From: an uncultured Clostridia bacterium
GTDB lineage: Bacteria > Bacillota > Clostridia > TANB77 > CAG-508
NCBI GenBank assembly: GCA_947625645.1
Contig: CANQPE010000004.1
Span: 2,467-66,466 of the forward strand
Reading direction: 5' to 3'
Length of the DNA stretch: 64,000 nt
The translations under genes and the position numbers were made by a program. This document shows, piece after piece, positions 31,339-31,649 of the stretch. The notes under the pieces were generated by a model. The model was not told the DNA's origin, searched no databases, and saw only the letters and a list, made by a program, of their open reading frames with translations. The stretch's first letter is position 1, and each line of letters begins with the position of its first letter.

Positions 31339-31367
31339 TTGACAAGAGAAAAAATATATGGTAATAT
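31339..31367 (+). promoter_or_regulatory. Sigma-A type promoter of the hisS-fusion operon
   Basis: TTGACA (31339-44), 17-nt spacer, TAATAT (31362-67) with TGn just upstream. Confidence 0.6.
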
Positions 31368-31401
31368 ATAAATATAATAAAAATTTAAAAGAGGGAAAAT
31401 T

Positions 31402-31455
31402 ATGAAGTCACAAATATTTTTAAACCAATTACATCATCATCGTAGGAGCTTGTAA
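31402..31455 (+). CDS. 17-codon leader peptide MKSQIFLNQLHHHRRSL with three consecutive His codons
   Basis: RBS agaggg 6-7 nt upstream of the ATG. cat cat cat lies at 31432-31440. The peptide sits in the 5' leader of a HisRS gene. Confidence 0.55.
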   Translation: MKSQIFLNQLHHHRRSL

Positions 31456-31472
31456 CTATATGCTGGTAAGCA

Positions 31473-31504
31473 CGTAGGTACAGGCTTAAAATGCTGTGCC
31501 TACG
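31473..31504 (+). promoter_or_regulatory. Leader hairpin with competing partner sequences
   Basis: cgtaggtacag (31473-83) pairs with ctgtgcctacg (31494-504). GTAGG recurs at 31442-46 (inside the leader ORF) and at 31555-59 (left arm of the downstream terminator-like stem). Confidence 0.5.
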
Positions 31505-31543
31505 ATAGAGTTTAAAAATATTTTTATCAAAAAGATATAATTT

Positions 31544-31590
31544 AAAAACTATTTGTAGGAAATTGAAGATTTTACAGATAGTTTTTTATT
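31544..31590 (+). terminator. AU-rich terminator-like stem-loop in the hisS-fusion leader
   Basis: aaaaactatttgta (31544-57) pairs with tacagatagttttt (73-86), then tatt. 14 bp with only 2 GC pairs, so a weak stem. Confidence 0.4.
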
Positions 31591-31649
31591 ATATCTTTTT
31601 TATTTATCAATATTAGACTTCATAATTAAAATTAAGAAAGGGGATTCAA

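Follow-up and report, generated by a model that had tools for sequence, protein, structure and literature searches.

A predicted leader-peptide histidine attenuator upstream of a HisRS–racemase fusion gene in uncultured gut Clostridia

Described histidine attenuators and the leader in the window

T-box leaders are the usual regulators of aminoacyl-tRNA synthetase (aaRS) genes in Firmicutes. The leader described here precedes such a gene and appears to be of another kind. It occupies positions 31339-31649 on the + strand of a 64-kb stretch of DNA from an uncultured Clostridia bacterium (contig CANQPE010000004.1; this whole stretch is called the window, and all coordinates are positions in it), upstream of a gene in which a histidyl-tRNA synthetase (HisRS) is fused to a histidine-racemase-like domain. 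A described system of similar design is the his attenuator of Salmonella (hisL, RF00514), in which pairing of the RNA segments B:C and D:E competes with pairing of C:D and E:F, and in which transcription terminates without translation of the leader (PMC4046918). Our comparisons suggest that the leader in the window is quite probably a ribosome-mediated (leader-peptide) histidine transcription attenuator as well, controlling the HisRS–racemase fusion together with an M20 peptidase gene. Attenuation by His-tRNA(His) availability had been proposed in the original prediction, made from the letters of the window, and this reading was supported by a conserved leader open reading frame (ORF), a histidine regulon and switching RNA folds.

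The leader interval sits between a truncated dipicolinate synthase B-like flavoprotein gene, which ends at 31342, and the 687-codon fusion gene, which starts at 31650. All leader features lie on the + strand. A sigma-70-type promoter (31339..31367) consists of a -35 hexamer TTGACA (31339-44), a 17-nucleotide (nt) spacer and TGgTAATAT (TG 31359-60, TAATAT 31362-67). With 10/12 matches plus the TG, it is among the two top-scoring + strand promoter-like sites in 30500-34900, and TTGAC(A/G) with a TG-extended -10 hexamer is found similarly upstream of homologous leaders. The ribosome-binding site AGAGGGA (31390..31396) is located 5 nt ahead of the ATG at 31402, which opens a leader ORF of 17 codons, MKSQIFLNQLHHHRRSL (31402..31455), closed by a UAA stop at 31453-55 within a helix that we call P4. 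Three His codons, CAT CAT CAT (31432..31440), are the proposed sensing codons. They are followed by CGU AGG (31441-31448), where the RNA word GUAGGAG includes a Shine–Dalgarno-like AGGAG. AGG is usually a rare arginine codon. Such codons slowed the ribosome in an assay of the Salmonella his leader (PMC4046918).

Within 31339-31649 the word GTAGG occurs at 31442, 31474 and 31555, and CCTAC occurs once, at 31499; the 24 copies of GTAGG in the whole window correspond to ~0.1 expected per 311 nt. Three consecutive CAY codons occur 6 times in the window versus 3.6 expected, which alone is not significant, and (CAY)3 was rejected as a stand-alone signal. The significance of the leader thus derives from its conservation in other genomes, and not from the window itself. 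Two edge overlaps apart, no ORF of at least 20 codons was found over the leader on either strand. On recount, the promoter, the ribosome-binding site, the 17-codon ORF with its three His codons, the GTAGG and CCTAC words, an 11-base-pair (bp) hairpin and an AU-rich terminator-like stem all lay where the original prediction had placed them.

The proposed switch is a relay of RNA segments. S1a (AUCGUAGG, 31439..31446) holds the first GUAGG and pairs with CCUACGAU (31499-506) as helix P3 in untranslated RNA. S1b (AGCUUGUA, 31447..31454) contains the stop codon and pairs with UACAGGCU (31479-86) as helix P4, the predicted clamp holding S2. P4 is capped by the hairpin P5 (31456..31477; CUAU:GUAG plus UGCU:AGCA), whose sequence is variable while the hairpin is kept. 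S2 (GUAGGUACAGGCU, 31474..31486), with the second GUAGG, has either S1b (P4/P5) or S3 as its partner, in the latter case forming the local 11-bp hairpin B (31473-83/31494-504). S3 (CUGUGCCUACGAUAG, 31494..31508) carries the single CCUAC and is the switch segment, with S1a, S2 and S4 as possible partners. S4 (CUAUUUGUAGG, 31549..31559), with the third GUAGG, provides the left arm for the terminator core and, alternatively, pairs with S3 in the antiterminator. S5 (31570..31587) consists of the right arm of the terminator core (31570-81) and a U6 tract (31582-87), the expected site of premature termination.

Transcription would start ~7 nt past the -10 hexamer, and the leader ORF would be translated while the polymerase transcribes the ~150 nt from the His codons to the terminator. 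When His-tRNA(His) is scarce, a ribosome stalled with its A site on the first or second His codon would cover S1a and not S1b. S1b:S2 (P4/P5) would persist, so that S3 would be free to pair with S4 once the latter has been made; if this antiterminator forms in vivo, the terminator would be blocked and the polymerase would proceed into the HisRS fusion. When His-tRNA(His) is plentiful, the ribosome would reach the UAA in P4 and melt S1b:S2, whereupon S2 would pair with S3 (hairpin B), S4 would be left for S5, and transcription would end at the U tract near 31582-90. In the absence of translation, S1a:S3, S1b:S2 and a further helix, P2, would form one long hairpin, the terminator would form and transcription would again end.

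This scheme is similar to that of Salmonella in several respects. In both leaders a short ORF with tandem His codons precedes a Rho-independent terminator, and both would use a relay of more than four segments in which untranslated RNA terminates. A stall that permits B:C and D:E in Salmonella would permit S1b:S2 and S3:S4 here, and a ribosome at the stop codon that permits C:D and E:F would permit S2:S3 and S4:S5. In contrast, the present leader has neither sequence nor covariance-model similarity to RF00514, and it has 3 His codons rather than 7. In the untranslated state, its His-proximal segment is predicted to pair with D (S3), nested around B:C, instead of with B. Furthermore, it has extra closing helices (P1 and P2), a two-tier terminator and a low-GC Firmicute host, and it precedes an aaRS fusion, transporters and salvage enzymes in addition to biosynthetic genes.

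Predictions of histidine leaders in Firmicutes also exist. Naville & Gautheret (2010, PMC2965389) placed such leaders upstream of hisZ and of a hisS paralogue in the Bacillus cereus group. Ashniev et al. (2022, PMC9413887, Additional file 6) listed candidates upstream of his operons in three groups: the B. cereus group, Erysipelotrichales, and Peptostreptococcaceae plus Lutispora. A His leader in Firmicutes is therefore less exceptional than the original prediction suggested. These predicted leaders resemble ours in having 3-5 His codons, attenuator, antiterminator and terminator hairpins, and his or hisS-family genes downstream. In Lutispora and Terrisporobacter the elements follow in the same order and with similar words (CAUCAUAG..GGGUUUGUA, AUAGGUACAA.., ..UUGUAGCUAUGAUGG, then the terminator), and the stop codon of the Terrisporobacter leader lies in UUGUAA. 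An nhmmer profile of our alignment of 71 distinct leaders (A2) gave Lutispora a score of 7.6 bits (E = 0.1), in a match collinear along the entire leader, compared with 4.4 bits for the best of 600 shuffles, and scored Terrisporobacter and Acetoanaerobium at noise level. Homology to the Lutispora and Peptostreptococcaceae attenuators is therefore possible, the similarity being suggestive but not significant. The published Firmicute attenuators have been reported only before his biosynthetic operons (and the hisS paralogue in bacilli), whereas the present family is found in uncultured gut Clostridia and also precedes racemase-like, M20, GNAT and transporter genes.

T-box leaders (RF00230) share with the present leader the position 5' of an aaRS gene, the choice between terminator and antiterminator, and the charging level of one tRNA as the signal. 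The present leader differs in having no Stem I/specifier or T-box sequence and in having an ORF, and the ribosome, rather than a contact between RNA and tRNA, would read the charging level. A search of the whole window against Rfam at gathering score found nothing, and in 31200-31750 neither a T-box (RF00230) nor the enterobacterial His_leader (RF00514) was found at E <= 10, in line with the original prediction. Both candidates were rejected, as the leader region gave just four chance-level matches, to eukaryotic, viral or unrelated families. The motif GG[TG]GG[TA]ACC[GA]CG was absent from 14 homologous leaders, and no T-box was found upstream of the racemase-like genes in 11 more distant loci. 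That the search works is indicated by a T-box which the same model finds elsewhere in one of the loci (L041). Precedent for a leader-peptide stall that controls an intrinsic terminator in a Firmicute, aided by polymerase pausing, comes from the antibiotic-sensing ribosome-mediated attenuators of Bacillus subtilis before bmrCD (PMC4191407) and before the tylosin-induced methyltransferase gene yxjB (PMC6851288). Unlike the present leader, these sense drug-induced stalling rather than an amino acid, and their sequences are unrelated to it. We regard the leader as a sequence family not described before, belonging to an already known type of attenuator.

Conservation of the leader ORF and the genes downstream

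When species-representative genomes were searched for the racemase-like domain, 80 loci were found, and a metagenome scan returned 63 stretches, most of them with a complete leader. The pattern used in the metagenome scan was the S2-S3 hairpin alone, so that the leader ORF was not pre-selected. The same leader was present in ~85 loci of uncultured gut Clostridia, with promoter, ribosome-binding site, mini-ORF (M..IFLNQLHHHRRSL followed by a stop), hairpins and terminator; viral contigs contained no copy of it. The closest locus (L001) belongs to a Clostridia metagenome-assembled genome from rabbit gut. In 14/14 loci with a HisRS fusion or with adjacent HisRS and racemase genes, whose proteins are 57-85% identical to those of the window, the leader including the 17-codon ORF lay upstream. 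The leader core was also found immediately 5' of stand-alone racemase-like genes, and across all leader loci the regulated proteins are 46-85% identical.

The mini-ORF on which the original prediction depended was conserved in 79/79 complete leaders: each has a purine-rich ribosome-binding site at the same distance, an ATG, 2-3 His codons in the same place and an in-frame stop. The ORFs are 15, 16, 17 or 18 codons long, with rare exceptions of 14 and 21, and insertions and deletions between ATG and stop are thus multiples of three. One variant form, shared by three loci (L116, L128, L141), has a 1-nt deletion in the third His codon and a 1-nt insertion 9 nt later, which returns the frame to the same UAA and gives the peptide ..KQLHHIVGDL. 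In-frame insertions and deletions together with a compensated frameshift form the pattern that selection for translation to that stop predicts. Loss affects the third His codon most often, in at least four variant forms (L028, L034, L037 and the L116 type), whereas the first and the second were each lost once (L046 and L089).

The terminator always lies 20-250 nt 5' of a histidine-related gene on the same strand. The first genes after the leader are a HisRS–racemase fusion followed by an M20 gene, a racemase-like gene followed by M20, HisRS alone, HisZ-like with HisG, HisG with HisIE, an SBP_bac_3 binding protein with an ABC permease, a GNAT acetyltransferase with M20, or M20 alone. By their annotated functions, the leader-bearing genes are a histidine supply regulon, and such a regulon should be expressed more strongly under a shortage of histidine or of charged tRNA(His). 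Because the racemase fusions and the stand-alone racemase-like, M20 and GNAT genes share their leader with hisS, hisZG and hisIE, they can be given a label of histidine acquisition or salvage; possible roles are the conversion of D-histidine to L-histidine, or the release of histidine from peptides or acylated forms.

In the window, the fusion gene (31650..33713, + strand, 687 codons) encodes HisRS in residues 1-429, with the Pfam domains tRNA-synt_His and HGTP_anticodon in residues 11-429, and a histidine-racemase-like domain in residues ~430-687. The closest solved structures to this fused domain of ~260 residues were deposited as 'histidine racemase' (9cr6/9cr1, E = 6e-24), and the domain has two conserved cysteines. 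The second gene of the operon (33723..34742, + strand) encodes an M20-family peptidase or deacylase, and such a gene follows the racemase-like gene in most homologous loci. Public data contain more than 60 fusion proteins of ~690 residues, none of them named, and a literature search found no paper linking a histidine racemase with HisRS. The HisRS and racemase-like parts are separate adjacent genes in two loci (L012, L060), and the racemase-like gene stands alone in other genomes.

A second leader type, with a mini-ORF reading ..HHVWSEYHPY.., was observed 170-340 nt before the racemase-like gene in six loci (L006, L008, L011, L018, L045, L049). It has the classic four-segment layout (GUAUGGAGUGA / UCACCCAUAC / GUAUGAGUGA..U7) and precedes orthologous racemase-like genes in distant loci; in L045 it occurs in tandem with a leader resembling the first type (..WHYHCRRT, then stop). 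The two leader types share only the His run and the terminator, which suggests that the His codons, and not a particular fold, are the common sensor.

Alternative folds of the leader RNA

The RNA of 31370-31650, whose folding had been proposed as a check, is strongly structured: its predicted energy is -76.6 kcal/mol compared with -39.4 +/- 4.0 for shuffled sequences (z = -9.4; 0/200 shuffles equal), and alternative pairings were found. The minus strand folds less stably (-65.8), as expected for a + strand RNA that uses G-U pairs. Predicted energies are -13.9 kcal/mol for the antiterminator domain, -13.6 for the inner terminator stem, -19.8 for P4 plus P5 and -16.9 for hairpin B; hence, the antiterminator domain is about as stable as the inner terminator stem.

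The minimum-energy fold contains the helices P1 to P5 and an outer terminator stem, and its first GTAGG also pairs with CCTAC (P3). The long-range helices P1 and P2 that enclose the ORF had been missed in the original prediction, and P3, P4, P5 and the outer terminator stem likewise go beyond its description. P2 joins AAAUAUUUUUAAAC (31412..31425, codons 4-8) to GUUUAAAAAUAUUU (31510..31523). P1, a perfect 12-bp helix, joins AAUUAUGAAGUC (31398..31409), which holds the leader start codon, to GACUUCAUAAUU (31616..31627). It covaries in ~18/71 leaders and is absent from the others. As its 3' strand lies past the terminator, P1 is only possible in read-through transcripts, where it might serve to stop translation of the leader or to mark a site of processing. 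U-rich sequence adjoins the 3' side of the 17-bp terminator-like stem (31544-60/31570-86). The terminator is two-tiered, with a core stem and its U6 (31549-81, 31582-87) inside an outer 13-bp stem formed by 31529..31541 and 31588-600, the latter followed by a second U-rich run (31588..31606 in all); this outer tier is missing in some homologues. In alignment A2, where the consensus at S5 is ATAGTnTTTTTT, the U6 tract is almost invariant and an A tract precedes the hairpin.

Covariation was scored in A2 for the long hairpin (P2-P5) and the terminator. Standard pairs fill 88% of the cells, versus 34-56% with slid partners, and 32 pairs have changed on both sides, compared with 18.7 +/- 2.0 in shuffles (0/500 shuffles as high). 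Both structures are thus supported by covariation. Examples are found in P2 (columns 28:156, AU 36, UA 28; helix 96% paired), P3 (columns 60:135, CG 57, UA 5, UG 2, where CAU-UGUAGG accompanies CCUACAA), P4 (columns 69:113, GC 66, AU 3, GU 2) and the terminator (columns 185:227, GC 29, CG 22, AU 12, UA 7; columns 191:221, UA 50, AU 11, UG 8). P4 is further supported by three distant variants (L093, L111, L136), in which AGCUUGUA...UACAGGCU is swapped for AACACUU...AAGUGUU.

The effect of ribosome position was studied by constrained folding of 72 distinct leaders. Nucleotides under the ribosome were forced to be unpaired, from -12 to +12, +14 or +16 relative to the P site (counts refer to the +14 mask), and folding of each leader stopped 3 nt past S4, at which point the right arm of the terminator has yet to be made. 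With the first His codon in the A site, CCUAC paired with S4, forming the antiterminator, in 67/72 leaders, and with the second in the A site in 64/72. At the third His codon this was the case in only 10/72. With the A site at the stop codon, CCUAC paired with S2 in 71/72, forming hairpin B and leaving S4 free for the terminator. In the absence of a ribosome, CCUAC paired with S1a in the long hairpin in 46/72 and with S4 in 19/72. The leader of the window gave the same ribosome-dependent pattern. A ribosome at the first or second His codon hides S1a and leaves S1b:S2 (P4/P5, -19.8 kcal/mol) whole, so that S2 is unable to take S3; a ribosome at the UAA inside P4 melts P4/P5, so that S2:S3 (-16.9) forms. 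The predicted failure of a stall at the third His codon to give the antiterminator fits the observation that this codon is the one most often lost.

Of the switch scheme in the original prediction, the competing pairings (hairpin B, CCUACGAUAG:CUAUUUGUAGG and the terminator) were all conserved, and in constrained folding they switched as induction by histidine starvation needs. The scheme was incomplete in that it did not use a fifth segment, S1b (AGCUUGUA), which the switch also requires. Two other analyses were set aside. Equilibrium folding with the complete terminator did not discriminate between ribosome states and was replaced by folding at the point when S4 has emerged; and the fold of the window still favoured the antiterminator with the transcript end at 31590, which was partly due to fortuitous extra helices and is not general.

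Competing explanations and the biological setting

Several observations weigh against a ribosome-controlled switch. When the complete terminator is present, it wins the equilibrium in at least 68/72 leaders in every ribosome state tested, which means that the decision has to be a kinetic one, like that of classical attenuators. Hairpin B (95.6% paired) and the antiterminator S3:S4 (95-97%) are nearly invariant and hence have no covariation support; judged from the alignment, they are permitted, not proven. In three leaders (L087, L114, L139), a U to A change in S4 weakens S3:S4 and is not compensatory. Position 31553 is among the most variable in S4 (U to A, 11/71); it is bulged in one S3:S4 register and covaries in the terminator. 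The near-invariance of S1-S4 is what would be expected of segments that each have two or three alternative partners to match. Moreover, Johnson et al. (Nature, in 2020) are said to have found that transcription outruns translation in B. subtilis. By analogy with the antibiotic-sensing attenuators of that species (PMC6851288), coupling in the present Firmicute lineage would need programmed polymerase pausing.

A further point is that the leader RNA is nearly identical (~90%) in hosts with only ~50% identity between their proteins (46-67% for the regulated proteins), which could point to a bound factor. A trans-acting factor, be it uncharged tRNA(His) bound in a non-T-box manner, histidine or an RNA-binding protein, would then stabilise the long hairpin or the antiterminator, and the mini-ORF would be incidental or a by-product of the recognition of CAU-rich RNA. 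This would suit the Firmicutes, of which factor-dependent leaders are typical, and the asymmetric internal loop that separates P2 from P3 in the minimum-energy fold does contain the first His codon and some of the second. We nevertheless consider it unlikely, as an untranslated RNA would have no reason to keep ribosome-binding site, ATG, frame and stop in 79/79 leaders, including one form with a compensated frameshift. The alternative partners of S1-S4 explain the high conservation as well, the His codons are all that the second, unrelated leader type has in common with the first, and the T-box model had no match at E <= 10, nor was any GGUGGUACCGCG-like sequence present. HutP-type antitermination was rejected separately. 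HutP-type sites are UAG triplets spaced by 4 nt, whereas 30-80 nt separate the UAGs of this leader, whose regulon is biosynthetic rather than catabolic.

The nascent peptide, IFLNQLHHHRRSL, could itself be the sensor or effector, either through TnaC-like arrest by free histidine or D-histidine, or as the product of a small His-rich peptide gene that ends in a terminator. Its sequence is strongly conserved, and one locus (L012) keeps Arg-Arg through a change from CGU AGG to AGA AGA that destroys P3 pairing, which suggests some selection on the peptide. Conversely, the L116 type keeps the RNA after the His codons while its peptide becomes HHIVGDL, and three other leaders (L024, L099, L102) encode HHHYISL. 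Induction by excess histidine would be senseless for hisZG, hisIE and hisS under the same leader, and the spacing of 20-250 nt between the terminator and a gene on the same strand is unlike that of a stand-alone small gene, which together make this explanation very unlikely. A mixed form is that IFLNQL-HHH-RRSL acts as an arrest peptide in addition to the codons, giving a combined codon-and-peptide sensor of a histidine salvage regulon in a lineage without a T-box for this purpose. In that case the nascent chain, perhaps together with free L-/D-histidine or the rare CGU-AGG arginine pair, would determine the stall; we regard this form as unlikely. Control of translation or mRNA stability, with P1/P2 affecting processing or reinitiation at the leader and the AU-rich hairpin being a poor terminator, seems most improbable. 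The 12-bp terminator core is weak (-8.3 kcal/mol, few G-C pairs) and was not reported by a simple terminator scan, and P1, which covaries, ties the leader start codon to sequence 3' of the terminator. Against this stand the nearly invariant U6 after the hairpin, the A tract before it, the strong covariation of the stem and the ribosome-binding site of HisRS (31637-44), which is unpaired in the predicted fold. Besides, P1 is missing from most family members and cannot be the core mechanism. Ribosome-mediated attenuation thus remains the explanation that we favour.

The leader is part of a ~6.6-kb element (window ~31292-37896; flanks 30824-31291 and 37897-38005) inserted into a gene resembling that for dipicolinate synthase B (spoVFB/dpaB). 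When the two flanks are fused at the ACACA cores (31287-91 and 37892-96), ..YYFVPFTQDNPITKPRSIVADF.. is restored, and the closest locus, from rabbit gut, has the same insertion. The element is similar to the sporulation-gene intervening elements of bacilli. Its cargo consists of the His leader, the HisRS–racemase fusion, the M20 peptidase, a toxin–antitoxin pair and a large serine recombinase with a LysM insert (35896-37866). The pair, a nucleotidyltransferase (MNT) and a HepT-like ribonuclease in overlapping frames (34929-35571) between the cargo operon and the recombinase, is probably a toxin–antitoxin module that stabilises the element. The whole regulated unit is thus mobile, carried by a small recombinase-bearing element inside a sporulation gene.

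With ~85 instances outside Rfam, the leader represents an unannotated regulatory RNA family and a candidate for annotation pipelines. Its interest lies in a host range where T-boxes or HisR would be expected, in the breadth of its regulon, and in the label that it provides for HisRS–racemase fusions, M20 and GNAT genes. It also bears on the question of whether the coupling of transcription and translation in Firmicutes is too loose for such switches, as this clade of gut Clostridia appears to read its histidine supply via the ribosome, and not via a T-box or a HisR repressor.

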